From Candidatus Hermodarchaeota archaeon (GTDB taxonomy: Archaea > Asgardarchaeota > Heimdallarchaeia > Hodarchaeales > Hodarchaeaceae), in the NCBI GenBank assembly GCA_048886185.1, contig JBHLKY010000001.1, positions 130,436 through 194,435 of the forward strand: a stretch of 64,000 nucleotides of DNA, in the 5' to 3' direction. The notes below the pieces were generated by a model. It saw only the letters and a program-made list of their open reading frames with translations. It searched no databases and was not told where the DNA came from. Shown here piece after piece: positions 9,930-55,089 of this stretch; position 1 is the stretch's first letter, and each line of letters begins with the position of its first letter. A program made the translations under genes and the position numbers.

Positions 9930-12900
9930 TTGAATCTGAAAAAAGAGCTAAGGAACTTGAAGAATTCACACCTATTGAACCAATATATCATGAAAATTTA
10001 ATTCGGAATTTGGTTCGATTTGCATCTTTGATAGTAATTGGACTTCTAGTAGGACAACCTGCACAAAACTATCTTCCAGAAATTTATCCAACCATATTAC
10101 ATCAGATGTTGGTCTTTACTCTTTTGATAGTTTTTCTCGTTGGGCTATTCTTTACATTTTCGCAGTTACGTTGGTTTAATGAAAAAAGAAACAAGTCAAC
10201 CAATTTAGGAGGGACTATGGGTTTATTTGGACTATTTCTAACACTCATTTGTAGTGTACTTTCATTGCTTACTGTTTCATCAGCAGTTCTTATCCCTCTA
10301 CTTGGTATAGGACTGTTTTTAACATTCTTAGGGTTCTTTATAGAGACAACTCGCATAGATGAACCATTGGTATATTGGTTCAGAATGAATCTGGAGGTTA
10401 TTATACGCTATTCGATAACGGGAACTGGAGCCTTTTTGATCAACTGGAGTGTATTAATGACAATTTTGCTCTTCTTGGGATATTCGGGTATATTACCACC
10501 TTTCTATGTCTGGCCTGGAGATTCAATTGGAGGATTATTATTAGGGAGTATTGGTTTGGTTCTTGTCTGGGGTTCTTGGTATCATAGAATCACTCAAACA
10601 CTCTGGAAATATCGGATTGAAATCATTAGAACAATCGAGTTAAGTATCAGTCAGGGTCTAATCCTCATAGCACTAATAGGTCCATTCTTAAATCCGGACT
10701 TTCTTCTATACAGCTCCATTTTAGGCATCGCAGGATTAGCAGTAATATATCTAGACCTATACATATTTAAAAAGAAGGTTTTTAGTAATTTTTCCAGCGG
10801 ATTTATATCCTCTAGTCAGGTTTATGCCTCTATCATTGGTCTAATCTTCATTCTTTATGGACTAATCTTGATTCAGCAGCCTAATTGGCGATATTTCACG
10901 ATCTATCTTTATGTAATGGGATGCTTGCTGCTCTACAGAGTCTGGTTTGATAAAACCAATTACACAATAAATCGTTCTGCTCAAATCTTCGTTTGGTTTT
11001 TCCGAACTCATTATAGAGAGGTTATTACCTCTTTTTGCTTTGTCTCTATGGCTTTAGGATCTTTTTTATTTGGATTCACAAGATTGTTTTTAAGAATTAA
11101 TGATTTTTTTGATCCTGTACCTTTAGGGTTATTTCTAGTTGGTTACGCAATTGGACTAGTGGTTTGGTATATTCCAAGTCGTCATACATACTATCGAGGT
11201 ATGACAACGTCGTTAAATTTCTATTTGTTGTTATGGGGAATTTTCCTTTTTATTTTCCTCTTGCAGATAGATTCTAATGATATGATACCTTATGTGATTT
11301 CAACTACAATGTTTGTTATGGGGATGAGTGTAAACGTATGGCTTTGGAAAAGAGAAATATACAATTCAACTAAAAATACACTTATCACAATAAAAAACAC
11401 AATTTTTCAAACAATTCATGTTGTTGCCCAGTTCTTCAAAACATATTACCGTGAATTATTAACTATTGGAATTCTAAGCCTTATAACATATGGACTTGTT
11501 GTAACGTGGAGTACAGTCATTCACCCTCCCTATTGGCCATTCTTGTTTTTGATAACTGGTTATGCTATGCTTTTAGCCATCTGGCGCTTTCCTAACCGTC
11601 ATGACTATTTTCGTGGAGTGACAACAACTCTTAGTACCGTAATGATCCTTTTTGGCTTAGTATTAGTATTTTTCCAGGATTATCAATCTATCATTTGGCT
11701 TTCTGGTGGAATAATCATTATTGGTGTTGTAGTCAATGGAGCAGCGTGGCAAACGGAACTTAAACTGCTATTAATTCAAACTGCTACTGCTATCAAGAAC
11801 GTAATTGTCCGAACTGGCGTAACATTGAGAAATTTCTTTATCACTGTTAAAAATGCATTTATCCAAACTATTCATGCTCTTATTCACTTTATCGATAAAT
11901 CCCTCCATACTATCTGGGACTATCGCGTTCCTCTCATGAGGTCGATCATGACAACTATTGGTGCAATTCTAGCCATCACAGGTTTTTTATCATGGATTTT
12001 AAATTACGTATTCGACATAACTTGGATCTCTGGTCTTGAACCTTCGTTCTTGATATCTGGTATGATCCTTCTTTATATAGCTTGGTTCTATCAAGTTAAC
12101 CAGATTGTTAAGCAATCCGCTATTGCTATTCGTAATGGACTTGTCCACGTTTTTCATATTATCGCGGACTTCCTTGTGGCCGCTAAGAATACTGTCATAG
12201 TTGTTTCTCACTATATCTGGGATCACCGTGTTGACATTTTAAGAGCTCTCGTAACAATGATTGGTATTGTTTTGATCTCTACTGGGATTATTCCAGCAGA
12301 TCTAATTGATATTGACTCAAATATGAAATTAGTATTAGTAATTGGAGGTATAATTGTATTGTATTTATCCTGGCTCCAACCAGTAAACCATTTCCTCATA
12401 AAAACCTTGATTGCAATTAAAAACTTCTTTGTTGCTGTTAAGGACGCCACTATCCAGTTTATTCAAACAGCTATCCAATTTCCTGTAAATACATATCGAA
12501 AAATAGTTAATTTTCTCCAAAAATACTATATTGAAATAATTCGCTATTCTGCTACAACTATTGGGGGCTTCTCCATTTTCTTTGGGTTTTGGGGAACATT
12601 GAGGCAGGAACCGTTTGGGCTACTCATTCTTATTGCAGGATTGGCTATCCTTTATGCTGCTTGGTTCCATCATGTCAATCAATTTATTATTAGAACAATC
12701 CAGTCCATAAAGGATGCCATAATCCACGCTGCTCACGCTATTGCTAATTTTCTCCAGAATGTCAAAAATGCAATTATGCGAACTTTTTCCGCAATTGGAT
12801 CTTTCATGCAAAAAATAGCAATCCAACTGAACCAATTACTCCGTTCTATTGTAGATTTAATTATCCCAATATTTCTTCTGATTTTGTCAATCTCGGCGCT

Positions 12901-13252
12901 TTTCTATGGTATCATTCTAATTTTGTCTGGAGTATTTGATCCGACTGGAGCTCTTTTTAGTGATCTTCTTCTTCCAATTCCTCTTTTTGGAGATCTTTTG
13001 GATTTTCTTGCTCGATTGCTTCAGGGAGAAATCTATGAAGGGAATATCCTAGGTGTTTTTGCTAATCAAGACCCCATATTTCAAATTCTGGTTGGTATAG
13101 GCATTATTATATTCGGTGGTGTTGTATTTTTATTTGTGGCGCTAAAGAAGGAGAAAATGAGAATTAGATCCCTTTTGAAGGCTGATGAAACGTATTCTCA
13201 AGCAACACTTGATAAAGAAGAGGTTAATGACCTTGATGGTGGTAAAAAGTGA
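9926..13252 (+). CDS. giant (1108 aa) polytopic membrane protein with about 5 internal repeat modules
   Basis: A soluble charged N-terminus is followed by more than 20 predicted TM helices. There are recurrent amphipathic modules '..AIKNxxVxxxxxxxNFFxxVKNAxIQTIHxxxxF..' (about 5 copies) and repeated 'W(Y/R)(I/F)P(S/N)RH(T/D)Y(Y/F)RG(M/V)TT' segments. It is translationally coupled on both sides. Confidence 0.6.
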   Translation: MIESEKRAKELEEFTPIEPIYHENLIRNLVRFASLIVIGLLVGQPAQNYLPEIYPTILHQMLVFTLLIVFLVGLFFTFSQLRWFNEKRNKSTNLGGTMGLFGLFLTLICSVLSLLTVSSAVLIPLLGIGLFLTFLGFFIETTRIDEPLVYWFRMNLEVIIRYSITGTGAFLINWSVLMTILLFLGYSGILPPFYVWPGDSIGGLLLGSIGLVLVWGSWYHRITQTLWKYRIEIIRTIELSISQGLILIALIGPFLNPDFLLYSSILGIAGLAVIYLDLYIFKKKVFSNFSSGFISSSQVYASIIGLIFILYGLILIQQPNWRYFTIYLYVMGCLLLYRVWFDKTNYTINRSAQIFVWFFRTHYREVITSFCFVSMALGSFLFGFTRLFLRINDFFDPVPLGLFLVGYAIGLVVWYIPSRHTYYRGMTTSLNFYLLLWGIFLFIFLLQIDSNDMIPYVISTTMFVMGMSVNVWLWKREIYNSTKNTLITIKNTIFQTIHVVAQFFKTYYRELLTIGILSLITYGLVVTWSTVIHPPYWPFLFLITGYAMLLAIWRFPNRHDYFRGVTTTLSTVMILFGLVLVFFQDYQSIIWLSGGIIIIGVVVNGAAWQTELKLLLIQTATAIKNVIVRTGVTLRNFFITVKNAFIQTIHALIHFIDKSLHTIWDYRVPLMRSIMTTIGAILAITGFLSWILNYVFDITWISGLEPSFLISGMILLYIAWFYQVNQIVKQSAIAIRNGLVHVFHIIADFLVAAKNTVIVVSHYIWDHRVDILRALVTMIGIVLISTGIIPADLIDIDSNMKLVLVIGGIIVLYLSWLQPVNHFLIKTLIAIKNFFVAVKDATIQFIQTAIQFPVNTYRKIVNFLQKYYIEIIRYSATTIGGFSIFFGFWGTLRQEPFGLLILIAGLAILYAAWFHHVNQFIIRTIQSIKDAIIHAAHAIANFLQNVKNAIMRTFSAIGSFMQKIAIQLNQLLRSIVDLIIPIFLLILSISALFYGIILILSGVFDPTGALFSDLLLPIPLFGDLLDFLARLLQGEIYEGNILGVFANQDPIFQILVGIGIIIFGGVVFLFVALKKEKMRIRSLLKADETYSQATLDKEEVNDLDGGKK

Positions 13253-14433
13253 CAGTTAATAGAAAGAGATCGAAAGAAAAATCAGATGATATAGCTAAAA
13301 TCCCAAACATCTCTCTCGATCAGGAGAAAGAAGCAAGGGGTAAACGTCTCCAGGAAGCATCATTTTCGGAACTTGTCTCATTTTCAAGATTTACACTAAT
13401 AGCAATCTGCATATTTATACTAGCTTTAATAATTTCAATTATTCTCCAATATAGCCCACTTGAAAACCCTGGACGATACGTAACTGGAATTATAGGGATT
13501 TCAATTCTTATCCTGCTCCTTAGTTTAATCGTTGATATTCTACGTTGGAGAGATTATACCGAATGGGGAGCTTTGGGAGCTTTAATCTCCTATGGTGGAA
13601 TTCTCCTAATTTTCATGCCACTTTCTCTCAATATGGTGATCCTGATCGAAGATGTTACTTTCCTGGTTCCATTCTTTGGAGAATTTAGCTTATATCTAAT
13701 AATCATTATTTTAGGTGTCGTCATTTTTACTATTGGATTCACTTCTAGAGCCACTGAACTTGACCACAAAATTGAAAACCTTCTCTTTATAATGAAGCAA
13801 TGGATAACTACATTTGCTTTTCGACAATTCTTTCGAACCCTTGGAGAGTTTATTCTAACATTTATTAGTGGATTTTTCAGGTATATTGGGAGGGGAATCC
13901 GAGAATTGAGAACTCGTATAGCAAGGCTTCTTAGATGGACAACACGATCTTTCATTTTCTTTTTAACCTCCATCAAGGATTTCTTTTACCATACCTTCCC
14001 CCAGATACTAAAACGATCATTGATCGGATTTTGGAACAATTTTCATTGGCTGGGATTAATTGCTGTTATCGTCTATGTTATTCTGACTGATATTCCTATT
14101 CCAAATATTGATCCTTTTCTTATCAAAGCAGAGCTACTTATTGTTATTGGTTTTTTCTTTTGTCTTGGGATCCTTTACCCTCAGAAAGACCGTTTTGCAC
14201 TAATTGCTAAGGGTATGAGGAGCTCTGTTCTTAGTAGAGTGATAAGTGCTTATAGTATGCTCTCAGGAACCAAAATAGAAATGGACAAAGCTATTTTCTG
14301 CTCTAGATGTCTTAGAGGGGTTGAAGTTAGAGAATTTGAATCCCTCATGGAAATTAAAGGGATGATAGATCCACCCTGCCCGTTTTGTGGATTTAATAGT
14401 TGGATTGGATCTGAAAAAGTGTCTATCCCTTAA
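13249..14433 (+). CDS. membrane protein with a C-terminal CxxC...CxxC zinc ribbon (GTG start)
   Basis: The GTG start overlaps the upstream TGA. There are multiple TM helices and a C-terminal 'CSRCLRGVEV...CPFCGF'. Confidence 0.5.
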   Translation: MTVNRKRSKEKSDDIAKIPNISLDQEKEARGKRLQEASFSELVSFSRFTLIAICIFILALIISIILQYSPLENPGRYVTGIIGISILILLLSLIVDILRWRDYTEWGALGALISYGGILLIFMPLSLNMVILIEDVTFLVPFFGEFSLYLIIIILGVVIFTIGFTSRATELDHKIENLLFIMKQWITTFAFRQFFRTLGEFILTFISGFFRYIGRGIRELRTRIARLLRWTTRSFIFFLTSIKDFFYHTFPQILKRSLIGFWNNFHWLGLIAVIVYVILTDIPIPNIDPFLIKAELLIVIGFFFCLGILYPQKDRFALIAKGMRSSVLSRVISAYSMLSGTKIEMDKAIFCSRCLRGVEVREFESLMEIKGMIDPPCPFCGFNSWIGSEKVSIP

Positions 14434-43989: not shown

Positions 43990-45063
43990 TTATTCCTTTT
44001 TCTGAGGCAATCTATATGCTCTTGCTCGTCTGATGCCCATTTGTGTATAATAATTGATAACACGGTGAAATTCTAACCTTTTTAATTTCTCTCGTTGGCC
44101 CTGAATTGATAAATCAATGAAATATTCTTTCATTGCAGGAGCCAAATCATGAGCAACTTCAATAGGTATTTTGTTCCATTTTCTCAGAAATTTTTGTAAT
44201 TTTAAGAGTTTTCGGGGATTATTAATCACAAATACGTTTTCTTCAGTTGTTATGAAATCCATTGCTTGCATAGATTGAGCTCCAAACACAAGACGAGCGG
44301 GAAAGGCTTCAAAAAGCAACTGACAATAGTTCACAATAACAGCTGAAAATGCACTTATGAGGGCTGAATCTAGCGGAGAATCATACTCTAAATGGATTGG
44401 TACTCCTGCACTTGAGTGAATGACTCCCCAAGGACGAGACGGTGTTAATGTTGAAAAATGAGTTTCGAACAGCTCTCTCAACAAGGCATGAAAAAACAGC
44501 AATTCTTCAAAACTTAATGCAGAGAAGGAACATTCACCATTCCCCACTGTTACATTTTCATTATAGGTTACTGCATTTATTGCTTCTTGGAAAAGCTGAT
44601 CTACGATGTTTTTATCATGATTATTTTCTTCTTGTGAGTAAAATTGTGAATAGATGACTGAAGCACCCCCTGCAAGAATACTCCTCATTTCATCCCAAGG
44701 AGCAGTTTCTAATTCTATTCGACTCATTAGTCTTGTCGTGACAAGAGGGTCAGAAATAACAATGCTGAATCTCTTCAATTTACTAGATAGATTTACAATC
44801 ATAATTTCTCGTGCTTGACTTGGGTGAGGACGAGGATATCTTAACCTTACAATTCCAATTCCCTGACCCCACAATTCTGCTCCTAATCTACTGACAGATC
44901 TCACGAAATCGAGTGTTTGTTCAAGCTTATCTTGGTTGAGATCACCAAAATGCCATTTCACTTCGTTTTCACTAGTTAGAATTGCCCAATTATTGAGATA
45001 TAAACGACGCTGATTAGTAATCATTATAGAATGTTCTCCATGTCTGTTTTTTCTAATGTTCAA
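43990..45063 (-). CDS. hypothetical protein (357 aa), no recognisable motif
   Basis: Long ORF in AT-rich DNA and last gene of the minus-strand operon 46814-43990. The C-terminal paralogous remnant downstream argues it is a real protein family. Confidence 0.5.
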   Translation of the reverse strand: MNIRKNRHGEHSIMITNQRRLYLNNWAILTSENEVKWHFGDLNQDKLEQTLDFVRSVSRLGAELWGQGIGIVRLRYPRPHPSQAREIMIVNLSSKLKRFSIVISDPLVTTRLMSRIELETAPWDEMRSILAGGASVIYSQFYSQEENNHDKNIVDQLFQEAINAVTYNENVTVGNGECSFSALSFEELLFFHALLRELFETHFSTLTPSRPWGVIHSSAGVPIHLEYDSPLDSALISAFSAVIVNYCQLLFEAFPARLVFGAQSMQAMDFITTEENVFVINNPRKLLKLQKFLRKWNKIPIEVAHDLAPAMKEYFIDLSIQGQREKLKRLEFHRVINYYTQMGIRRARAYRLPQKKE

Positions 45064-45183: not shown

Positions 45184-46461
45184 TTAAGACAGAAATAATA
45201 TATCATATATTAAGGTGCCATAATAATTTTCAGTTTCAATTATGGTGATTTGCAGTAAATCCATTGCAGCTTTTTTTCCAACTATCTTAGATAGATTATG
45301 TAAAAGTGAGTCCAAAAATGGGAGGAATGCGTTTTGAAAAAGTGGTGTCATTATTTGTGGGCGAGTATTTAATACAGCTTCTAATTTTTCAAAATATAAG
45401 CCTTTCATATAATTTTCTACAAGCTTAGCAATAGTTATTATCCTTCCTTTGTTTTTTGCCCGTTCTAGCTCATGATTAAATATTGTCTCAAAGATTGTGA
45501 AAGTGAAATTTTCTCCAAACATTTTAACCAGTTGGAGGCGAAATAACTTTAGAAATTCTTCAAAAACAATTAGTAATAAACCAGAATCAGACAAGAGGCT
45601 GATATAACCACTAATTGACAGATATCGAAATAGTTGGATCATCCTCATTTTTTCTTGTGTTGTTAAATTCGCAGAGAGAGACTTAATTGAATGTCTTCCA
45701 TCAATTTTTTGAGTAATCTTAATTCCCCATTCTCCCCAATGTTTAAAAATTGTCTGATAGGCCATTCCTTGTTCTAATATGATACCGATATGAGCTTTTT
45801 CGATTTTAAAAATATCAGTGTTTTTTATTGCAATATCCACTGATTTTAAGTATCCTATCTCTTTTAATATTGCTGTTCTAGCAATACAATATTCTAATGG
45901 CCAATTAATTTTGCGAGAGATTTCTATAATAGCTAATTTCCCATCAAATAATTCCAATAGGGGTTTGTACTTAGATGGGATCTCTATTCCTCTATTTTTA
46001 TAAGCTTCATCTTTTATTTGTTTGAAAATAAGGTTCTCATCTAAATGAGATAGCATAAATTTTCGAGTTAATTCACGAAAAGGAATGTATCTCTGGGTTT
46101 GTATATTTTGTTCTTTGATTTCCTTTAAATAATTAAATTCGAAAATATCAATGATTGCTCTAATTTTTTCCATTAAAATTTGACTTTCATTATCTACTAC
46201 TAAAATAGCTTCGATTTCTTGACCACGTTCAAACATTATTTTCTTTCCTTCCCTTTCAATCACATTTAATGTTCCACTCTCGCTTGATATATTATCCATC
46301 ATACTATCAGAAAATGTCGAAATAGCATTTACCAATCCTCCTAAAATAATGGAATCAGTACGAGGAGCATAACTACTAAATTTAATGTCAAAAATTGTCA
46401 AACCAGAGATGTTTAACAAAAAATAAATGAGACCAGCTTTATCTAGGGATTCATTACTCAT
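45184..46461 (-). CDS. hypothetical protein (425 aa) with a possible N-terminal longin/roadblock-like alpha/beta module
   Basis: N-terminal beta-beta-alpha-beta-beta-beta-alpha pattern ('GLIYFLL','GLTIFDIKF','SIILGGLVNAISTF','TLNVIERE','KKIMFERG','IEAILVVD','SQILMEKIRAIIDIF'). The rest is helical. Confidence 0.45.
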   Translation of the reverse strand: MSNESLDKAGLIYFLLNISGLTIFDIKFSSYAPRTDSIILGGLVNAISTFSDSMMDNISSESGTLNVIEREGKKIMFERGQEIEAILVVDNESQILMEKIRAIIDIFEFNYLKEIKEQNIQTQRYIPFRELTRKFMLSHLDENLIFKQIKDEAYKNRGIEIPSKYKPLLELFDGKLAIIEISRKINWPLEYCIARTAILKEIGYLKSVDIAIKNTDIFKIEKAHIGIILEQGMAYQTIFKHWGEWGIKITQKIDGRHSIKSLSANLTTQEKMRMIQLFRYLSISGYISLLSDSGLLLIVFEEFLKLFRLQLVKMFGENFTFTIFETIFNHELERAKNKGRIITIAKLVENYMKGLYFEKLEAVLNTRPQIMTPLFQNAFLPFLDSLLHNLSKIVGKKAAMDLLQITIIETENYYGTLIYDILFLS

Positions 46462-46814
46462 TTTGGTGCATCATCCAATTTGACGGGACTTGCGGGTTTT
46501 TTTGCTTTAGTTTTCAGCTCATCAAAAAATACTGAAATCTTCCATAATCCAAAGAAAACAAACCCAAATCCTATACTAATCAATACAAGAAAAACTAATT
46601 GTACTAAAGGATTCCAAATTGGATCCTGATAGTTTAAAATTGAGATAATTGTTTGAGAAAGCAAACCACATGAAATAAAAAATGCTCCTAGGCTAATAAT
46701 CTTATTACTGGTTCCAAAAATTCCTTCTAACCGAAATTGTTTAGCAGTTGTAACAAGACTAATCATCATGCAGCATCCATAAAGCATACCACGAATAATG
46801 TCATATTCTTGCAT
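46458..46814 (-). CDS. small 3-TM membrane protein
   Basis: 118 aa. It overlaps the downstream gene by 4 nt. Confidence 0.45.
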   Translation of the reverse strand: MQEYDIIRGMLYGCCMMISLVTTAKQFRLEGIFGTSNKIISLGAFFISCGLLSQTIISILNYQDPIWNPLVQLVFLVLISIGFGFVFFGLWKISVFFDELKTKAKKPASPVKLDDAPK

Positions 46815-47009: not shown

Positions 47010-48962
47010 CTAATGATGATTAAAGTACTTGTGGTGAGTTTCTAATTGTTTGATTACTTCTTTTTTAAATAAATCAGGTAATCTATAAAGCTCAAAAATT
47101 AAATCATCTAATGAACAACATAATTCTGATATTTTTCCTTTCTCAGTACAGAATGGACATAATTGTAAGAAAATCTCTTTAGAAGATGAAAACTGCTCAA
47201 GTGACTTGCTAAGGGAAGATACTTCTTCTTCGATTGAAGTGCAAATATCATTTTTCAAAGGATTAAGTCGAGGTAGGGGTATCAACCCTATATCTGCTGG
47301 CGGAACAGCTGCTGTTAGGTTAATCTGATGGATAAACCAGTTTATTAGAAGAGAGTTAAAAATTCCTAATAATAAATTAGTAGAAACATATATTGAAGTC
47401 GAATTACAATCTAAAAGAAAATAATTCAAGTTATTTTCGACCCAAATTCTGTTGTGAGTTTTAAGGTGGTCTTCCGAGATCAAACCAGAAACAACTCTAC
47501 GTAATTGTTCTCTAGCAGTAATTCGTTGGAACACAATTCGGGGAGTATTGGCGTGCTTTTTTCGAAAGATAGTGTTATCCATTGATGATGGTTGTAAGTA
47601 CCAACGAGGCTTATGGCGATTTTCTGATAGATTGATTATAAAAGGATGGACATTCTTCCCATTTAATACAATCTCGAAATTTGAAATGTTATCTTTTTCA
47701 AGAATCTTTTTATAGTAAAAAGGTCGGATTTTGCTATCAGCAGGTCTTATTTCTCCGCTTTGAATTTTGTATACATCTTTTAAACAGATAGAATTCTTTC
47801 TAATAAGCCTAATTATTTCAAATGTTTTAGGGTATGGTGAAGGAATAATTTTATCCTGAAAAAGTAGAAGGGGGGTTGAAATGTCACCTTCAGTAATTTC
47901 ACCTAGGACTAATTCTTCTATATTACAGGTTCGTATTATATGAGTTTGCTCTTTTTCTTCACCCCCTTTCTTCTTCTGTAAAACTAATAAGCAGGTTCCT
48001 TGAAGAACATTAGGAAAGATATGAGTTCGACTTACAAAATCAACCACTTCGCGTAAATGGAATTGCGAGAGAAGGAATTTACGAACCTCTACACTATAAT
48101 AATCAGTCAATACTGAATTTGAAGTTAAGAAAGTTGCGATTCCATCTGAAGTCAAAAGCTCATTCACACGGGTTAAAAAAAGGTGATAAAGATTAAATCG
48201 ATTAATAAATATCTGTTTTTGGTATAATTGGCGATAAATTTGGTTATCTTTTGATGAAATATCTTTTGTTACATAGGGTGGATTACATAAAACGAGATTA
48301 AAACCTTTATTTTCATGATTAAAAATTCTTGGAAATTCCTTATACCAATGAAAAAATTGATTTTCGTTAATACTTAATTCTTCTTTCTGGAGTAATTCAA
48401 GAAATCTTTTTTGATCTTCAGGTTTAGTACTTCCAAGTAAGACATTACCATGCCTAATCTGGTGATTTAAAGTGTTCTGCACTTCTTTGAGCTTATTTTG
48501 AGTTAAATTGGATTCATTTTGTCCTAATAACCATTTTTTTAGCTCCTTTTGGCAAGTATGAATTGCTTTAGGATTAAAATCTACTCCATGTAAATTGTTC
48601 TGGATTATCTGAAATCTAACATCTGTTGAATCTGAGGAATTACAATGAATTGCTTCTAGAAATTTACCTGCTTCTAAAAGAAAAACTCCATTTCCAACTC
48701 CAAGATCGAGAATTTTGATATCCTTTATTAGCTCTTGCATTTGTAGGCGTGTTGAATAATTAATGGTATCTTTAGGAATTTTTGATGCTGTTACCTGTGA
48801 TAAGAATTTCAATAATAATTTTTTAGGTAATCGTTGGTGAAAAAATTGTTGGAATGCCGACCAGACCACAAATTGAGCTAGTATGGTTGGTGTGTAATAG
48901 GTACCAAGCGATTCTTTCTTATTTGAGGATTTCACTTGTAACACCTGGTGAGACCCGTTCAT
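47010..48962 (-). CDS. gamma-class N6-adenine DNA methyltransferase
   Basis: 'LGTYYTPTILAQFVV', motif I 'ILDLGVGNGVFLLEAGKF', motif IV 'LVLCNPPYVTKD', then a roughly 330-aa C-terminal region with a 'CPFCTEKGKISELCC' ribbon. Confidence 0.75.
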   Translation of the reverse strand: MNGSHQVLQVKSSNKKESLGTYYTPTILAQFVVWSAFQQFFHQRLPKKLLLKFLSQVTASKIPKDTINYSTRLQMQELIKDIKILDLGVGNGVFLLEAGKFLEAIHCNSSDSTDVRFQIIQNNLHGVDFNPKAIHTCQKELKKWLLGQNESNLTQNKLKEVQNTLNHQIRHGNVLLGSTKPEDQKRFLELLQKEELSINENQFFHWYKEFPRIFNHENKGFNLVLCNPPYVTKDISSKDNQIYRQLYQKQIFINRFNLYHLFLTRVNELLTSDGIATFLTSNSVLTDYYSVEVRKFLLSQFHLREVVDFVSRTHIFPNVLQGTCLLVLQKKKGGEEKEQTHIIRTCNIEELVLGEITEGDISTPLLLFQDKIIPSPYPKTFEIIRLIRKNSICLKDVYKIQSGEIRPADSKIRPFYYKKILEKDNISNFEIVLNGKNVHPFIINLSENRHKPRWYLQPSSMDNTIFRKKHANTPRIVFQRITAREQLRRVVSGLISEDHLKTHNRIWVENNLNYFLLDCNSTSIYVSTNLLLGIFNSLLINWFIHQINLTAAVPPADIGLIPLPRLNPLKNDICTSIEEEVSSLSKSLEQFSSSKEIFLQLCPFCTEKGKISELCCSLDDLIFELYRLPDLFKKEVIKQLETHHKYFNHH

Positions 48963-48977
48963 TTCAACAATAATTAT

Positions 48978-49778
48978 TTATAGAAAGCTGTCTAGATTGA
49001 TGATTTGACTCCGATTAATATATTCAAGTCGAGATTGAAAAGATTTGGCATTTTCCAAATTCTTCTGAGACTCAAGAACATATTCTGGATTGATTTCAAT
49101 CCCTAGATATTTGCGATCGAGGAGTTTAGCTACGATTGCAGTTGTTCCTACTCCAAGAAAAGGGTCGAAAACTAGGTCTCCTTCATCAGAAGATGTCAGA
49201 ATTATCCTTTCCATGAAAGTTAAAGGTAATTGAGTAGGGTGTTTATCATGTCTCTTCTTTCTATGCTTGATTCTATAAATATTAGTCCAGATATCTGAAA
49301 ATGGCTTTTCTATCAAAGGAGTATTGATTCGTTTATCAATACATTGTGCTCGTGCGCAATGAGTCCAATTATGCTTAGAAGTTAATTTGTTGAACGTGTA
49401 CTTCTTGTTTGATTTTGTGTAGAAAAGTAATGAATAATGAGCAGGCATTATCTTACCACGGGGAGCTGATAAAGCATCCCAAGCGATGGTATTTTGTCGA
49501 AATAAGAATTTATCTAAAAAAACTGCATGATTAATAGCCCATTTTGGAAGATTTAATAGATAGAACGATCCGTCTGGCTTTAATAATCGTACTATTTCAA
49601 TAATCCATTTTTCAGCCCATTTAAGATAATTTTGAGTGGTAGTGGAATCATCATATATACCATAATCTTTCTCCAGATTATAAGGAGGATCTGCAAAAGC
49701 TAAATCGACTATGCCTGAGGGAAGGTTTTTCATTTCTTCAATGCAATCCCCATTGATAATTCGATTTTCAAAACTCAT
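48978..49778 (-). CDS. beta-class DNA methyltransferase (N4-C or N6-A)
   Basis: Motif IV 'AFADPPYNLEKDYG' is N-terminal. 'FSDIWTNIY', 'HPTQLPLTFMERIILTSSDEGDLVFDPFLGVGTTAIVA' (motif I) is C-terminal. Confidence 0.8.
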   Translation of the reverse strand: MSFENRIINGDCIEEMKNLPSGIVDLAFADPPYNLEKDYGIYDDSTTTQNYLKWAEKWIIEIVRLLKPDGSFYLLNLPKWAINHAVFLDKFLFRQNTIAWDALSAPRGKIMPAHYSLLFYTKSNKKYTFNKLTSKHNWTHCARAQCIDKRINTPLIEKPFSDIWTNIYRIKHRKKRHDKHPTQLPLTFMERIILTSSDEGDLVFDPFLGVGTTAIVAKLLDRKYLGIEINPEYVLESQKNLENAKSFQSRLEYINRSQIINLDSFL

Positions 49779-50688
49779 AAGGATTCACTCCATCATAAGG
49801 AGCAAGAAGTAGAGTTGATGTAGAGGTGCATGATAAGTCAACTAATCGTTTTAAGACTGAAGAAAGTAGCGGATTTACTGTAATCAGTTGATTAGAAGAA
49901 AAATCTGGATGCCAAATGTCTGATAATACCATTCCATTTCTATGTCTAAGGTGTTTTTTTCCGCCATAATCTTTTAGTGGTTTATTACAAAAGGAGCAAA
50001 AACGATATGGTATCCTAACACGATTAATTCTGAATTTTTTAGGAGATTTCACATAATACAAGATACAATTTGCTTCTGATTTGTATTTTCTTGAAACATC
50101 AACATGAGGGATTTCCTCTGAATAAACAATCCAATATTTAAAATAAAGACCTAAATGATTAAGTTTAACACCAAAATAAGGTAAATAACGAGGAATTGAA
50201 TGGATCAAAACATTTCCATTGGATTTTAGAATCCGTAAAGTCTCCTCTAGGTAGCCATAAACTTCTTTTATAAGTGATGAATTAGAAATGTTATGATATG
50301 ACGAAGTATCTTGTTTCTCCTTAAATGTAAATTTTGGAAAAAGAATCCACGTATCAACACTTTGATCCTTAATTTCAGCTAATTTCTTCATTTCAGACGA
50401 TTGTAATACTATAAAGTTTGATGGAATGATATCCTTAACACTGTCCCTTCTATGTTTACGTGCTAGAAAACGTTCCTTTCCTGCCTCAGGATCCTTAATA
50501 TTGTAAACTGCCATCAACTCTGATAATTTGAAGAATCCTTTTACCTTTAAGGGATTTTTAAGCTGTGTTCCATTTTTGTCATACTTTTTTAATAAACCAC
50601 GTTCTATTTGTAGTCGGATGTTCTCCTCCGCATGATTGGAATAAATCACTGCATCTTTCAATGTTATAAAACGATCACGTTTAGGCAT
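49768..50688 (-). CDS. catalytically degenerate paralog of the adjacent beta-class methyltransferase
   Basis: Colinear with 48978-49778: 'VDTWILFPKFTFKE' vs 'VDLAFADPPYNLEK' (DPPY becomes FPKF, nt 50329-50340); 'SDIW' conserved; 'LLLAPYDGVNP' vs 'LVFDPFLGVGT' (FxGxG lost). It overlaps the downstream MTase start by 11 nt. Confidence 0.55.
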   Translation of the reverse strand: MPKRDRFITLKDAVIYSNHAEENIRLQIERGLLKKYDKNGTQLKNPLKVKGFFKLSELMAVYNIKDPEAGKERFLARKHRRDSVKDIIPSNFIVLQSSEMKKLAEIKDQSVDTWILFPKFTFKEKQDTSSYHNISNSSLIKEVYGYLEETLRILKSNGNVLIHSIPRYLPYFGVKLNHLGLYFKYWIVYSEEIPHVDVSRKYKSEANCILYYVKSPKKFRINRVRIPYRFCSFCNKPLKDYGGKKHLRHRNGMVLSDIWHPDFSSNQLITVNPLLSSVLKRLVDLSCTSTSTLLLAPYDGVNPYEF

Positions 50689-50803
50689 TCCAATCGAGCT
50701 TTTTTGATGATCTAAGAATTATAAGGATTGTGCTTGATATTTTCCCACTGAGAAGTTTTTAACTGATTAATTATAGCCTCCTCTTACTTTAGGAGTAACT
50801 ATT

Positions 50804-52159
50804 ATGGTAAAAACGGAGGTTTTAGTTGTTGGTGGGGGCCCCGCAGGAGTGATTTCAGCCCTAACGGCTGCCAAATTAGGCCGAAAAGTGATTTTGATAG
50901 ATTCTAAATCATATGAAGAAATTGGTAACAAGGTTTGTGGTGATGCGTTAAATCTAGCTCCAGCCACATTCTTAGAAGAAAAACTAGGGCTTGAAAAGCC
51001 TCATGGTGAAGAGGTTGCCGAAATTGTGGAACATTTAATTTTTATGACTTCCAAAGCTGATTTTCCAATCCAAGGGGATGGTTATGTATTGAATCGCCAT
51101 CCATATGGTCAACGGCTCCTAAAGAAAGCTATTGAATATGGTGTTGAAGTTCGTGCAGAAACTAAAGCAATAAAAGCAATTACTGATGCAGGTTTTGTGA
51201 AAGGGGCCGTAGTTCGAGATAAGAGTAAAAAAGAAACATATGAAATTTTTGCAAGCGTAACAATCGATTGTAGCGGTAGAAACTTCCAAATACGCCGTAC
51301 TCTCCCAGAAGATGACTTTCCTCTTCTTGAAAAGGAGATGGAGAAACGAGACATCGCTGTTTCTTATCGTGAAATTATTAGATTAAAAGAAGAGGATCAC
51401 CCTTATCAGAATAAGATTTTTTTGATTTATCGTAAGGAAATTCCTGAACCTGGTTATTTCTGGGTCTTTTCTAAAGGTCCGAAAAGACTCAATGTTGGGA
51501 TTGGTTGGTTCCTGGAGCCAAGACACAAAGGGATGAAAGATTGCTACCAAGAAGTTTTACATAAATATTATTATCCCCCAGGTTCTTATGTTGTAGAAGA
51601 TAGGGGAGGATACACTATTCCTACTCGTTATCCAATGACAAATGCTGTTGCCTCAGGTTTTTTGACCGCAGGTGATGCAGCTTTTCATGTTAATCCATTG
51701 TCTGCAGAGGGCCATGGACCAGCACTAACTGCAGGGTATTATGCAGGAAAAGCAGCATCAGAGGCGATTGAAACGAATGATGTTTCGGAAAAACAGTTAT
51801 GGAAATATAATATCGATGTCATGAAGCATTTTGGTTTAAGTCATACAAAGACCCAGTTATTTACAGCCGCTTTACGACGAATCAAGGTTTCTGGAGTAGA
51901 ATTTCTTCTGCGAAGAAGGATATTAAACAAAGAGCAGTTCATTGAATTGCATGAAGGAAAACAGCTCAGCTATTTTGATATAGCAAAAATTGCGATTAAA
52001 TCTTTCCCTCGATATGATATCCTTTTCCAGCTTTCAAAAATCGTCAAGGGAGCACAATTTTTTGAAAAGTTATTTGCAGAATATCCACATATTCCTGCTG
52101 AATACGCAGCTTGGAAGGCTCAATTTGATTCAAAAATGGAACAAATCCGTTCAATTTAG
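50804..52159 (+). CDS. FAD-dependent geranylgeranyl reductase family (archaeal lipid saturation)
   Basis: 'VLVVGGGPAGVISALTAAKLG' dinucleotide-binding motif, plus 'GDA' and 'YFWVF...GIGW' typical of GGR. Confidence 0.75.
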   Translation: MVKTEVLVVGGGPAGVISALTAAKLGRKVILIDSKSYEEIGNKVCGDALNLAPATFLEEKLGLEKPHGEEVAEIVEHLIFMTSKADFPIQGDGYVLNRHPYGQRLLKKAIEYGVEVRAETKAIKAITDAGFVKGAVVRDKSKKETYEIFASVTIDCSGRNFQIRRTLPEDDFPLLEKEMEKRDIAVSYREIIRLKEEDHPYQNKIFLIYRKEIPEPGYFWVFSKGPKRLNVGIGWFLEPRHKGMKDCYQEVLHKYYYPPGSYVVEDRGGYTIPTRYPMTNAVASGFLTAGDAAFHVNPLSAEGHGPALTAGYYAGKAASEAIETNDVSEKQLWKYNIDVMKHFGLSHTKTQLFTAALRRIKVSGVEFLLRRRILNKEQFIELHEGKQLSYFDIAKIAIKSFPRYDILFQLSKIVKGAQFFEKLFAEYPHIPAEYAAWKAQFDSKMEQIRSI

Positions 52160-52191: not shown

Positions 52192-55089
52192 TCAATTTGT
52201 GGATTTAATTGAGGGTTCTGTAGGTGCTTTAGTTCCTGTTAAATCAAAAATTTCACGCAAATAAGTACCCGTTGGACATTCAAAATGAGCGATCTCTTCG
52301 GGTGTTCCTGTGGCAAGTACTTCCCCTCCATTGTCCCCACCTTCAGGTCCTAATTCTATAATCCAATCTGAAGTTTTTATGACATCTAAATTATGTTCTA
52401 TAACGACAACTGTATTACCTTCTTCAACTAACCTCTGAAGAACAGCTAACAAATAAGATATATCATGGGTTGAAAGACCAGTAGTAGGTTCATCTAAAAT
52501 ATAGAAGGTTTTACCTGTCGATCTCTTAGAAAGTTCTTTGGACAATTTAACCCGTTGAGCTTCTCCTCCTGATAGTGTTGTTGCAGGTTGACCTAGTTGG
52601 ATGTAACTTAAGCCAACATCAACGATGGTTTGTAATTTATGCTGTATTTTTGGAATATTAGAAAAGAAGTCAAGGGATTCCTCCACAGTCATGTTCAAGA
52701 CATCAGAGATGTTTTTTCCTTTATAACGGATCTCTAGTGTCTCTGTGTTATACCGTTTTCCTTTACAATCATCACATATAATCCAAACATCCGGTAGAAA
52801 TGATAGTTCAATCTTGATCTGTCCTCCACCTCTACATGTCTCACAACGTCCCCCCTTCACATTAAAGCTAAAACGTCCCTGTTTATATCCTCTTATTTTC
52901 GCTTCTTTTGTTTGAGCAAATAACGCGCGTATATTATCCCAAACTCCTGTATAAGTTGCAGGATTGGATCGTGGTGTCCTTCCGATTGGGCTCTGATCAA
53001 TGTTGATAACTTTATCGACGAATTCTAATCCTTCGAAACTTTCATGTTTACCAACTTTCTCTCGAGATCTATGAAGATATTTCATAAGCCCTGGATATAG
53101 AGTGTCATTCATCAATGTGGATTTTCCTGATCCAGAGACTCCTGTAATGCAAATAAAGCGGCCTAAAGGAAAACTGACATCAATATTTTTTAGATTGTTT
53201 TCCCCAGCTCTTATAATTTTGATACTTTTACCATTGCCAGTCTTCCTATTCTCTGGGATCTTAATCTTTTTTCTCCCAGAGAGGTAGGCTCCTGTTGTGG
53301 AAGTAGGACAATTCATAATATCTTTAGGCGTTCCCTGAACAACTAATGTACCTCCATGAATTCCTGGGCCCGGGCCTAAATCTATAACATGGTCAGCTGC
53401 TAAAATCGTTTGGTGATCGTGCTCAACAGCAAGGACAGTATTTCCTATAGCCTGAAGGTTCTTCAAAGAGTCCAATAACTTTTGTTGATCACGAGTGTGT
53501 AATCCGATTGAAGGTTCATCTAAAACATAAGTAACACCTACTAAAGCAGAACCAATTTGAGTGGCTAAACGAATTCTTTGGGATTCCCCTCCTGAGAGAG
53601 TCATCGAAGTTCGGTCTAATGTCAAGTAGGGTAATCCTACTGATATGAGGAAATCTAATCGGGATTCAATTTCTCTTAAAATATTAGAAGCAATCTTCGA
53701 ATGAGTCTTTGAAAGTTGAGAACGGAGTTCTCTTATCCAACTTAGGCAATTTTCAACAGTCATTTCTGTGATTTCAATGATATTTTTATTCTGAATCGTC
53801 ACGGCTAGCGATTCTGGTTTTAGACGTTTTCCATTACAGCTGGTACAGAAGTCTTGTCTCATAAATCGTTCATAATAAGAACGTGCGGTCTCACTTTTGG
53901 TTTCTTTGTATCTTCGCCAGATCGTATTTACTGTACCTTCGTGGCGATGTTGTTTGGACTCCCAACGACTTTTTTCTGATTCAAAAACAACATTCATTTT
54001 CGTTTTTGAGCCATAGAGTAAACTCTCTATCACTTCAGACGGAAGATCTTTTAAAGGTGTATCAACTGAGAAATCGTTCCATGATTTTGCTAGAGAAGTA
54101 TAATAGGCAAATCGCCATGTGCCAGGTGTCAATGGTTTGTCCATAAATCCTCCCTCACGAAATGAAAGATTCGGATTAGTTATGATTAAACTCGGGTCAA
54201 TGTTTAAGGTAGTGCCTAATCCCTGACATTCGGGACATGATCCCCAAGGGGAATTAAAACTGAAATTTCTAGGTTTTAACTCTTCGTAGGAAAGCTCACA
54301 GTCAGGACATGCATAATTTTCACTGAAGAAAAAATCCTCTCCAACTTCAGAGTTATCAATATTTATCCTAGTTATTATCACTACTCCTTCTCCAAGTTCG
54401 AGAGCTTGTTCTAATGCTTCAATCAAACGATTACGTATGTTAGGTTTAATAACAAGTCGATCGATTATTGTTTCTATGGAGTGAAGCTTGTACCGATCAA
54501 GCTGAGGAGGATCAGCTAGATCATATTCAATCCCATCAACCCTTACGCGAACAAAACCCAATTCTGTAAGACGATCCCACTGGGTGTGATGTGTTCCTTT
54601 CTTACCTCGAATAATTGGAGCTAGAATCTTAATACGTGTTCCTTCTTTCCATGTAAGTAAAGTTCTGACAATAGATTGGGGAGTTTGAATTTTTAATTCT
54701 TTATTGCAGGAGATACAGTGAGGAATTCCGATGTTAGCAAATAATAAGCGTAAGTAATCAAAAATTTCAGTTTGAGTACCAACTGTTGATCGTGGATTCT
54801 TACTAGTTGTTTTTTGTTCGATCGAAACAGCTGGAGACAACCCTTCAATAAGCTCTACGTCTGGTTTTTGCATTCTTTCAAGAAATTGACGGGCATATGC
54901 ACTTAATGACTCTACATAGCGACGTTGTCCTTCTGCAAAGATCACATCAAACGCTAAGCTTGATTTTCCTGAACCACTGACCCCAGTAATTACTACAAAT
55001 TGATTACGAGGGATGGATACTGTTAAATTCCGAAGGTTGTGGACTTTAGCATTTTGTACATAGATTACCTCTTTTTCTTTATTTGACAT
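52192..55089 (-). CDS. uvrA: excinuclease ABC subunit A
   Basis: 965 aa. Two ABC ATPase modules ('GVSGSGKSSL' twice, 'LSGGE(S/A)QR' twice) with inserted zinc fingers ('CPDCE..CPECQGLG','CETCRGGG..CDDCKG'). Confidence 0.9.
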   Translation of the reverse strand: MSNKEKEVIYVQNAKVHNLRNLTVSIPRNQFVVITGVSGSGKSSLAFDVIFAEGQRRYVESLSAYARQFLERMQKPDVELIEGLSPAVSIEQKTTSKNPRSTVGTQTEIFDYLRLLFANIGIPHCISCNKELKIQTPQSIVRTLLTWKEGTRIKILAPIIRGKKGTHHTQWDRLTELGFVRVRVDGIEYDLADPPQLDRYKLHSIETIIDRLVIKPNIRNRLIEALEQALELGEGVVIITRINIDNSEVGEDFFFSENYACPDCELSYEELKPRNFSFNSPWGSCPECQGLGTTLNIDPSLIITNPNLSFREGGFMDKPLTPGTWRFAYYTSLAKSWNDFSVDTPLKDLPSEVIESLLYGSKTKMNVVFESEKSRWESKQHRHEGTVNTIWRRYKETKSETARSYYERFMRQDFCTSCNGKRLKPESLAVTIQNKNIIEITEMTVENCLSWIRELRSQLSKTHSKIASNILREIESRLDFLISVGLPYLTLDRTSMTLSGGESQRIRLATQIGSALVGVTYVLDEPSIGLHTRDQQKLLDSLKNLQAIGNTVLAVEHDHQTILAADHVIDLGPGPGIHGGTLVVQGTPKDIMNCPTSTTGAYLSGRKKIKIPENRKTGNGKSIKIIRAGENNLKNIDVSFPLGRFICITGVSGSGKSTLMNDTLYPGLMKYLHRSREKVGKHESFEGLEFVDKVINIDQSPIGRTPRSNPATYTGVWDNIRALFAQTKEAKIRGYKQGRFSFNVKGGRCETCRGGGQIKIELSFLPDVWIICDDCKGKRYNTETLEIRYKGKNISDVLNMTVEESLDFFSNIPKIQHKLQTIVDVGLSYIQLGQPATTLSGGEAQRVKLSKELSKRSTGKTFYILDEPTTGLSTHDISYLLAVLQRLVEEGNTVVVIEHNLDVIKTSDWIIELGPEGGDNGGEVLATGTPEEIAHFECPTGTYLREIFDLTGTKAPTEPSIKSTN

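Follow-up and report, generated by a model that had tools for sequence, protein, structure and literature searches.

The current view of beta-class amino-methylases is that two protomers are required, of which one holds or reads the DNA and the other catalyses; by definition, the target-recognition domain (TRD) of this class is the region between motifs VIII and X. The two roles are genetically inseparable in the bacterial homodimers. Type II restriction-modification is further known for M.SsoII-type autoregulation, for controller (C) proteins and for N-terminal helix-turn-helix (HTH) domains. A division of labour between protomers has been described for EcoP15I (Mod2), in which DNA reading falls to one protomer and catalysis to the other (PMC7544214). 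Erosion of motif IV in the second subunit is seen in the heterodimers METTL3-METTL14, acting on RNA (N6-methyladenosine, m6A), and ciliate MTA1-MTA9, acting on DNA (6-methyladenine, 6mA). Additional nucleic-acid-binding modules are attached or recruited: METTL3 carries CCCH zinc fingers, and the MTA1 complex includes the homeobox-like p1/p2 (PMC7544214). In the present work we examined a stretch of 64,000 nucleotides (nt) from Candidatus Hermodarchaeota archaeon, an Asgard archaeon (contig JBHLKY010000001.1, positions 130,436 to 194,435; hereafter the window), in which three head-to-tail open reading frames (ORFs) on the minus strand, at 47010-50688, encode the methylase-like proteins A, B and C. 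Protein A has lost the catalytic and S-adenosylmethionine (SAM)-binding parts of its methylase-like domain, and its gene overlaps that of the complete enzyme B. The same pairing of a dead with a live domain recurs in other microbes, often fused, and for this reason A is better read as a helper subunit than as a broken gene. We propose, with a probability of about 0.7, that A would be the non-catalytic half of an obligate A/B heterodimer, in which the two proteins would form the two halves of one beta-class DNA amino-methylase.

Losses and conservation in protein A

Protein B covers the PF01555 model over its full length (166 bits, E = 1.3e-48, profile positions 1-220 of 221). It carries FADPPYNL, with the DPPY of motif IV, followed by HPTQLP, DPFLGVGTT and LGIEIN, so that motifs IV, X and I-III are present in beta order, and its closest solved structures are M.BceJIV (E = 3e-29), M.MboIIA (2e-25) and CcrM (2e-25). 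Protein A exceeds the cut-off of the same model by little (29.2 bits against 26.7) and over profile positions 18-151 only. It also matches the PADLOC model MTase_II (3.5e-26), and a search with its family profile finds M.MboIIA (1g60), aligned to residues 100-270 with E = 1.7e-13. Together these matches give A the homology of a beta-class fold in the order IV-VIII, TRD, X, I.

What A has lost was read from a multiple alignment of A, its orthologues, B and active relatives. The motif IV position, occupied by F117-P-K-F120, drifts among the orthologues (FPKF, SPRF, SPKY, LPRW, FFPY, FFSY), and the HPxQxP loop, 'HRIKHxKxRDxHPCQLP', is absent. Motif I is reduced to the remnant A296-P-Y-D-G-V-N302; A-P-[FY]-x-G is kept across the A family and the motif I glycines are not conserved. 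The chain stops four residues past this remnant, which removes motifs II-III, the strands beta2/beta3 of the SAM-binding half. A therefore shows neither the (D/S)PP(Y/F) of motif IV nor the FxGxG of motif I followed by II-III that characterise active PF01555 enzymes. Since it retains only the beta4-beta7 half, the segment at the TRD position, helix Z and beta1, A is, judging from its sequence, unable to bind SAM or to catalyse. A first-pass annotation of this stretch had already reported the replacement of DPPY by FPKF and of DPFLGVG by APYDGVN and had concluded that A cannot methylate. The alignment with active relatives upholds that conclusion; the missing HPxQxP loop and the early chain end are two losses that had gone unnoticed.

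The remaining parts of A are well conserved. A search of 5.8 billion proteins returned 38 clusters of homologues (E down to 1e-134), all with intact reading frames, and every named homologue belongs to an Asgard metagenome-assembled genome (MAG) labelled Heimdall-, Hod-, Prometh- or Odinarchaeota. Identity to A lies between 53 and 69% for most clusters, three fragments included, and at 39-40% in a distant clade; 55 columns are invariant in a family that reaches down to 39% identity. Mean column conservation is 0.82 in the N-terminal ~60 residues, 0.81 in helix Z and beta1, 0.83 in residues 207-228 and 0.82 in the C231...W259 segment, which occupies the TRD position and is invariant in the A family; it falls to 0.62 in the former catalytic region. 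Across orthologous Hod/Heimdall loci A is 59-66% identical and B 67-76%, and A is thus more conserved than the active protein C (48-54%). With the nearest distinct orthologue at 69% identity, synonymous sites are saturated, and purifying selection was judged from the intact ORFs. A is a real gene under purifying selection and not a chance ORF.

The association of A with B is equally constant. An overlapping B follows A in 10/10 Asgard loci whose contig spans both genes, an eleventh locus (L005) being left out of the count as it is cut inside B. The overlap measures 11 or 17 nt in the window and seven further loci of the Heimdall/Hod group and 14-32 nt in the distant clade, an arrangement consistent with translational coupling. 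Gene C comes after B in the Heimdall/Hod group wherever the contig reaches past B, and the distant clade has A and B only.

The N-terminus of A is the best modelled part of the protein, with an AlphaFold2 predicted local distance difference test (pLDDT) of 71-93 over residues 1-70 and of 65 over residues 71-80. Foldseek aligns it with Pukovnik Xis, BldC and MerR-type regulators at template-modelling (TM) scores of 0.6-0.7 on the target and with weak E-values, and no Pfam model, HTH_3 included, matches it. The domain thus predicted, a winged helix of the excisionase/MerR/BldC type, is missing from the fused and the bacterial split relatives described below and is specific to Asgard archaea. Going by the predicted fold, it could strengthen DNA binding, direct the enzyme to its targets or act in autoregulation.

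Dead-live relatives and the function of the pair

When the A-family profile was run against 1.84 billion cluster representatives, many proteins of 530-600 amino acids (aa) were recovered with two matches each. They consist of an N-terminal A-like dead domain, a linker and a C-terminal B-like live domain. The dead half has no DPPY and shows FKYWI, CxxCG..L.DWGGKKH..P.G..SDVW and a degenerate ending; the live half has FADPPYNLxKxY, HPCQLP and DPFxGTGTT. The best 150 representatives include 48 such fusions, 36 stand-alone dead domains and 12 active enzymes, and a profile of the fused family matches more than 5000 proteins at E <= 1e-20, the best 120 of which are mostly 550-610 aa long. Where a source is named, the fused members belong to Chloroflexi/Anaerolineae, to Acidobacteria, to two Asgard MAGs or to Alkalibacillus filiformis, which is in culture; none was found in phage and plasmid collections, and NCBIfam holds no model specific to the dead-live family. 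Split forms exist as well. In L086 a bare dead domain of 231 aa, devoid of winged helix, overlaps a live gene, and in L088 the overlapping partner of the live gene is a dead-domain protein with an XRE-type HTH. Stand-alone dead domains free of any HTH are also known, P0170 being an example. The two Asgard fusions (P0401, at 8001-9734 of L085, and P0405) mean that this phylum holds both split and fused forms; in L085 the fused gene is surrounded by metabolic genes, and no nuclease could be recognised in its vicinity.

The PDB has no entry that spans a dead and a live half together. An AlphaFold2 model of the fused protein P0336 of Alkalibacillus filiformis (576 residues, 114 sequences) is compact, with a pLDDT of 88.6 and a predicted TM score (pTM) of 0.87, a value that would be hard to reach unless the two methylase-like halves had a defined mutual arrangement. 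In this model the dead half comprises beta4-beta7, a hairpin region, helix Z and beta1 and passes into the linker with no beta2/beta3, which is the truncation seen in A. The segment of A at the TRD position is also shared: none of its residues C, C, D, GGK, G, D and W varies in 114 aligned fused proteins, and in the 60 of these that were aligned together with an A-linker-B chimera neither H246 nor S256 varies. Invariant cysteine pairs stand at an equivalent place after beta7 in A (residues 231/234) and B (residues ~141/146), and the same pairs occur in the fused family at columns C143/C146 and C401/C406. One pair from each half might together hold a metal at the dead-live interface.

The relationships of the domains point in the same direction. 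Scores of A have a median of 86 bits against the dead halves and 40 against the live halves; those of B have a median of 231 against the live halves, at a median identity of 46%, and 35 against the dead halves. In a neighbour-joining tree the dead domains form one bipartition in 100/100 bootstraps, as do the live domains (100/100), and the B family is recovered in 94/100. A thus clusters with the dead domains and B with the live domains of the fused proteins, which makes the pair a member of the dead-live module.

The closest active relatives of A are DPPF methylases and not B. They are 30-35% identical to A over its residues 94-302 (median 97 bits), ~44% identical to B, and occur in bacteria and some archaea (69 loci, L015-L083). 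With A, and not with B, they share the segment CxxC...LKDYGGKK...SDVW; unlike A they are stand-alone single genes in which DPPF, the HPCQLP loop, DPFxGTG and motifs II-III are all retained. Some have large N-terminal additions, apparently a LexA-like repressor with a peptidase S24 module in P0171 and an extension of ~240 aa in many bacteria of the candidate phyla radiation (L020, L024-L026 and other Saccharibacteria/Parcubacteria loci). The first-pass annotation had described A as a colinear paralogue of its neighbour. Membership of one subfamily stands, at great depth; a recent tandem duplication does not, as BLAST aligns A and B at 22% identity over 91 aa (E = 0.004). We regard A and B as ancient paralogues in one subfamily and not as local duplicates. 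The simplest reading of their origin would be the duplication of a DPPF-type enzyme and a complementary specialisation of the copies. One would have kept the segment at the recognition position and lost catalysis, and the other would have kept catalysis and altered that segment.

These observations are best accommodated by the obligate heterodimer. B would bind SAM and transfer the methyl group, and A would fill the place of the second protomer, providing DNA binding or recognition opposite the B active site as well as structural completion. Its winged helix would add a further DNA contact or autoregulation, and the overlapping genes would ensure co-synthesis and favour equimolar A and B, the pair being a split form of the widespread fused 'dead-live' methylase. 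A and B would accordingly bind each other in this organism; the target base would be DNA adenine, at N6; and A might be the DNA-recognition half, a role less certain than that of a non-catalytic partner. The earlier suggestion of a non-catalytic recognition or regulatory subunit in a heteromeric methylase thus gains support from four independent lines: the gene overlap, the fusions, the monophyly of the dead domains and likewise of the live ones, and the predicted fold of the fused member. Several points weigh against the heterodimer. B closely resembles homodimeric beta-class enzymes and might be active without A, and the Asgard-only winged helix could give A a separate role. The fused relatives have a linker of ~40-70 aa that finds no equivalent in the split pair. 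The AlphaFold2 model of A alone is poor (pLDDT 56.6 from 20 sequences) and only its N-terminal domain is usable, the rooting of the tree is uncertain since the dead domains are long branches, and N6-adenine and N4-cytosine are both possible as target.

The N-terminal domain of A raises the question of whether the protein chiefly regulates transcription, in the manner of a controller protein whose HTH acts on the operon promoter, the dead domain then serving for dimerisation or methylation sensing. The predicted excisionase/MerR-type winged helix is indeed among the best conserved regions of A, the bacterial split relative with its XRE-type HTH (HTH_3, 1.4e-10) recalls controller proteins, and a separate small HTH_3 gene adjoins the fused member in L091. 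However, the dead domain is found without HTH in fused and in stand-alone forms (P0170), and its primary role is therefore bound up with the live domain rather than with transcription. A itself departs from restriction-modification controllers, having no XRE-type HTH (HTH_3) and no conserved palindromic operator upstream of its orthologues. A chiefly regulatory A is unlikely, and such a role is compatible with the heterodimer as a second function. We consider it improbable that A functions apart from B, using a retained base-flipping or TRD surface to read or bind methylated or unmethylated sites and so to mark, for example, origins, mismatches or foreign DNA. Such a function would suit a non-catalytic protein that keeps a segment at the TRD position and a DNA-binding-type N-terminal domain, encoded at a nuclease-free locus among housekeeping genes and next to uvrA, but it leaves the invariable overlap with B, the repeated fusions to B-like domains and the strict co-phylogeny unexplained.

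The invariant CxxC, GGKKH and SDIW of A could mark a functional or metal-binding site, and A might then still be an enzyme that uses unconventional residues, borrows SAM elements from B in trans or acts on another substrate. With the beta2-beta3 SAM-binding half gone, the motif I glycines unconserved and the motif IV position free to vary, this is very improbable. A decaying duplicate, or a recent pseudogene kept open by chance, would account for the loss of all catalytic motifs and can practically be set aside, as A is intact in all 38 clusters despite the divergence between them, is more conserved than the active C, and shows no frameshift in any orthologue matched by tblastn. Frameshifted orthologues, with which the first-pass annotation would have given up its interpretation, thus fail to appear, and the 55 invariant columns speak for a maintained protein. 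Among these explanations the heterodimer of A and B remains the one we prefer.

Gene C, neighbouring genes and restriction context

The features of the locus are collected below; the three minus-strand genes, the overlap of A and B and the gap of 15 nt that separates B from the downstream C agree with the layout first reported. The A and B proteins are identical to entries from a 'Promethearchaeota archaeon' MAG in a protein search.

Table. Coordinates of the methylase triplet, of sites within gene A and of neighbouring genes in the window
Feature	Position	Strand	Description
Gene A	49768-50688	minus	306 aa; N-terminal winged-helix domain and dead, C-terminally truncated beta-class methylase-like domain
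Gene B	48978-49778	minus	266 aa; complete beta-class amino-methylase
Gene C	47010-48962	minus	650 aa; gamma-class N6-adenine methylase with TaqI-like C-terminal recognition region
A stop / B start overlap	49768-49778	minus	11 nt, ATGAGTTTTGA
N-terminal ~80 residues of A	50449-50688	minus	predicted excisionase/MerR/BldC-type winged helix-turn-helix
Motif IV position of A, F117-P-K-F120	50329-50340	minus	aligned opposite DPPY/F of active relatives
C231-x2-C234...K-D-Y-G-G-K-K-H...S-D-I-W259 of A	49912-49998	minus	TRD position, between motifs VIII and X
Motif I remnant of A, A296-P-Y-D-G-V-N302	49783-49803	minus	aligned opposite DPFxGxG
Divergent intergenic region, A/geranylgeranyl reductase	50689-50803	none	TATA-like CCTTATAATT at 50717-50726
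Geranylgeranyl-reductase-type flavoprotein	50804-52159	plus	divergent from gene A
uvrA	52192-55089	minus	directly beyond the reductase gene
118-aa hydrophobic ORF and 425-aa ORF	45184-46814	minus	4-nt overlap (ATGA); no family match
357-aa ORF	43990-45063	minus	downstream of the triplet; no Pfam, NCBIfam or PADLOC match

Protein C had been assigned to the gamma class, and its motif order agrees: DLGVGNG (motif I, at about residue 87) precedes NPPY (at about residue 227). The assignment is further supported by matches to Eco57I (89.5 bits, 3.5e-25) and N6_Mtase (38.6 bits, 1e-9) and by a TaqI_C-like region at residues 432-548, which is weak and under the cut-off (19.6 bits). The closest solved structures are those of M.BseCI and CamA, gamma-class enzymes of the orphan or type II kind, which have in common with C an NPPY core and a TaqI-like C-terminal recognition region; the similarity is confined to ~120-130 residues around motif IV (E ~1e-9). 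For C, no described counterpart was found to the fixed linkage of a gamma-class methylase to a dead-live beta pair. As no more than a guess, C might modify a second strand or a second motif.

Upstream of the triplet, the homologue of the reductase lies divergently in every Heimdall/Hod-group locus that has C and upstream sequence (69-84% identity across the syntenic loci) and adjoins A in all of these but L012, where it is ~3 kb away. The TATA-like motif in the intergenic region is conserved among the closest relatives only, and uvrA is found near the triplet in CP070695 too. The genes downstream of the triplet vary between orthologous Asgard loci. In the Heimdallarchaeota chromosome CP070760 (L002), gene C is immediately followed by two tandem homologues of the 357-aa ORF (73% and 62% identity; 11647-12684 and 12767-13810), and this ORF may belong to an extended syntenic block. 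The 118-aa and 425-aa ORFs have no homologue close to the triplet in the other loci retrieved. A programmed +1 frameshift (UUU-UGA) fusing A to B was also considered and rejected, as TTTTGA occurs only in the window and in L006; the other orthologues differ there, and the A/B junctions have no conserved slippery site.

In bacteria, a putative restriction nuclease adjoins the dead-live module in 5/6 contexts examined. L084, L088 and L090 encode proteins that are homologous to one another and whose match to the DpnII and BanI models is confined to the C-terminal part of these models, and their adjacency supports DNA as the probable substrate of the B-like domains. A second recurrent family of 215-244 aa, which matches no Pfam model and whose fold is unassigned, is encoded on unrelated bacterial contigs in L086 (7497-8219), L091 (2280-3014) and L084 (11184-11831), the last having both families. 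Two of its members share 60% identity, and each shares 27-28% with the third (E = 1e-16 to 1e-19); from its recurrence, this family is a candidate for a new restriction endonuclease family or an accessory subunit. In bacteria, the dead-live module would thus usually provide the modification activity of a type II restriction system.

The Asgard locus is organised differently. When the nuclease families that accompany the bacterial relatives were compared by tblastn with the window and with 11 Asgard loci, no match was obtained, and no nuclease or defence-family match occurs among the ORFs neighbouring the triplet in the window, in agreement with the initial remark that no restriction endonuclease is present. 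The cognate endonuclease gene that would stand beside the methylase in type II restriction-modification is thus missing at the Asgard locus. With no nuclease, a fixed chromosomal position and C as a gained third methylase, the triplet is probably an orphan methylation system. Target specificity cannot be claimed, since the bacterial nucleases match the DpnII and BanI models only partly and the window shows no depletion of GATC (observed/expected 0.93). CCGG is strongly under-represented in the window (1-64000), with 9 occurrences observed against 29 expected under a second-order Markov model (ratio 0.31), and every other 4-nt palindrome, GATC included, has a ratio of 0.90-1.13. This deficit may come from a CCGG-specific restriction system or from a methylation/deamination effect elsewhere in the genome.

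Comparison with known methylase systems

Among described systems, the beta-class enzymes M.EcoP15I Mod2, CcrM, M.BceJIV and M.MboIIA are of the same fold family as A and B, and their protomers divide labour. In the homodimeric enzymes both protomers are identical and complete, whereas the asymmetry of A and B is encoded by the genes, with one protomer permanently inactive and truncated. HTH-bearing methylases and controller proteins resemble A in placing an HTH on a methylase-fold protein at the head of an operon, and the bacterial relative P0308 has an XRE-type HTH, as C proteins do; they differ in that the predicted excisionase/MerR-type helix of A sits on an inactive subunit with no nuclease to regulate.

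The literature searched holds no description of a prokaryotic dead-live beta-class methylase pair or fusion, an absence that is no proof of novelty. The dimer principle of the beta class and heterodimers with a dead partner are known. What appears to be undescribed is this family, with its truncated partner, its fused and split forms and, in Asgard archaea, an orphan version bearing a winged helix. A natural protomer that is dead and truncated, available as two genes or as one chain, would permit a direct test of the roles in beta-class enzymes, showing which half determines specificity and whether the second protomer can do without its SAM-binding half. Public databases label the stand-alone dead domains 'DNA methyltransferase' or 'hypothetical protein', and predictions of methylomes or restriction-modification systems that count them as active enzymes will be wrong. 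Going further, the dead-live module could represent a widespread, undescribed class of hard-wired asymmetric DNA methylases, a prokaryotic equivalent of METTL3-METTL14 and MTA1-MTA9, domesticated in the Heimdall/Hod group as a nuclease-free writer with a regulatory or genome-maintenance role and not one in defence. We advance this view tentatively, as possible rather than probable; such a domestication would have included the winged-helix domain and the gamma-class partner.

The nearest functional likeness is to METTL3-METTL14 and MTA1-MTA9, heterodimers of beta order in which an active (DPPW) subunit is joined by a motif-IV-eroded partner that aids substrate binding, as we propose for B and A. 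The possession of an active subunit and a motif-IV-eroded paralogue supports the statement that the Asgard pair works like these writers, not that it belongs to MT-A70. Neither A nor B matches MT-A70 (PF05063) at E <= 0.1, and the structural match of the fused relative to MT-A70 proteins is remote (E ~1e-4). The eukaryotic subunits belong to the MT-A70 family and A and B to PF01555; the fold is complete in METTL14 and MTA9, whereas the entire SAM-binding half is gone from A. As the families differ, the structural match is remote and the fold of METTL14 and MTA9 is complete, the likeness is, on these comparisons, convergent and not homologous. The additional module is also of another kind, a winged helix on the dead subunit A as against the zinc fingers and p1/p2 of the METTL3 and MTA1 systems, and the prokaryotic module occurs in addition as one fused chain. 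The solution of 'active enzyme + dead paralogue' adopted by the eukaryotic m6A and 6mA writers would thus have arisen independently in prokaryotes, and one of the lineages with a dead-live pair is found among the archaea closest to eukaryotes.

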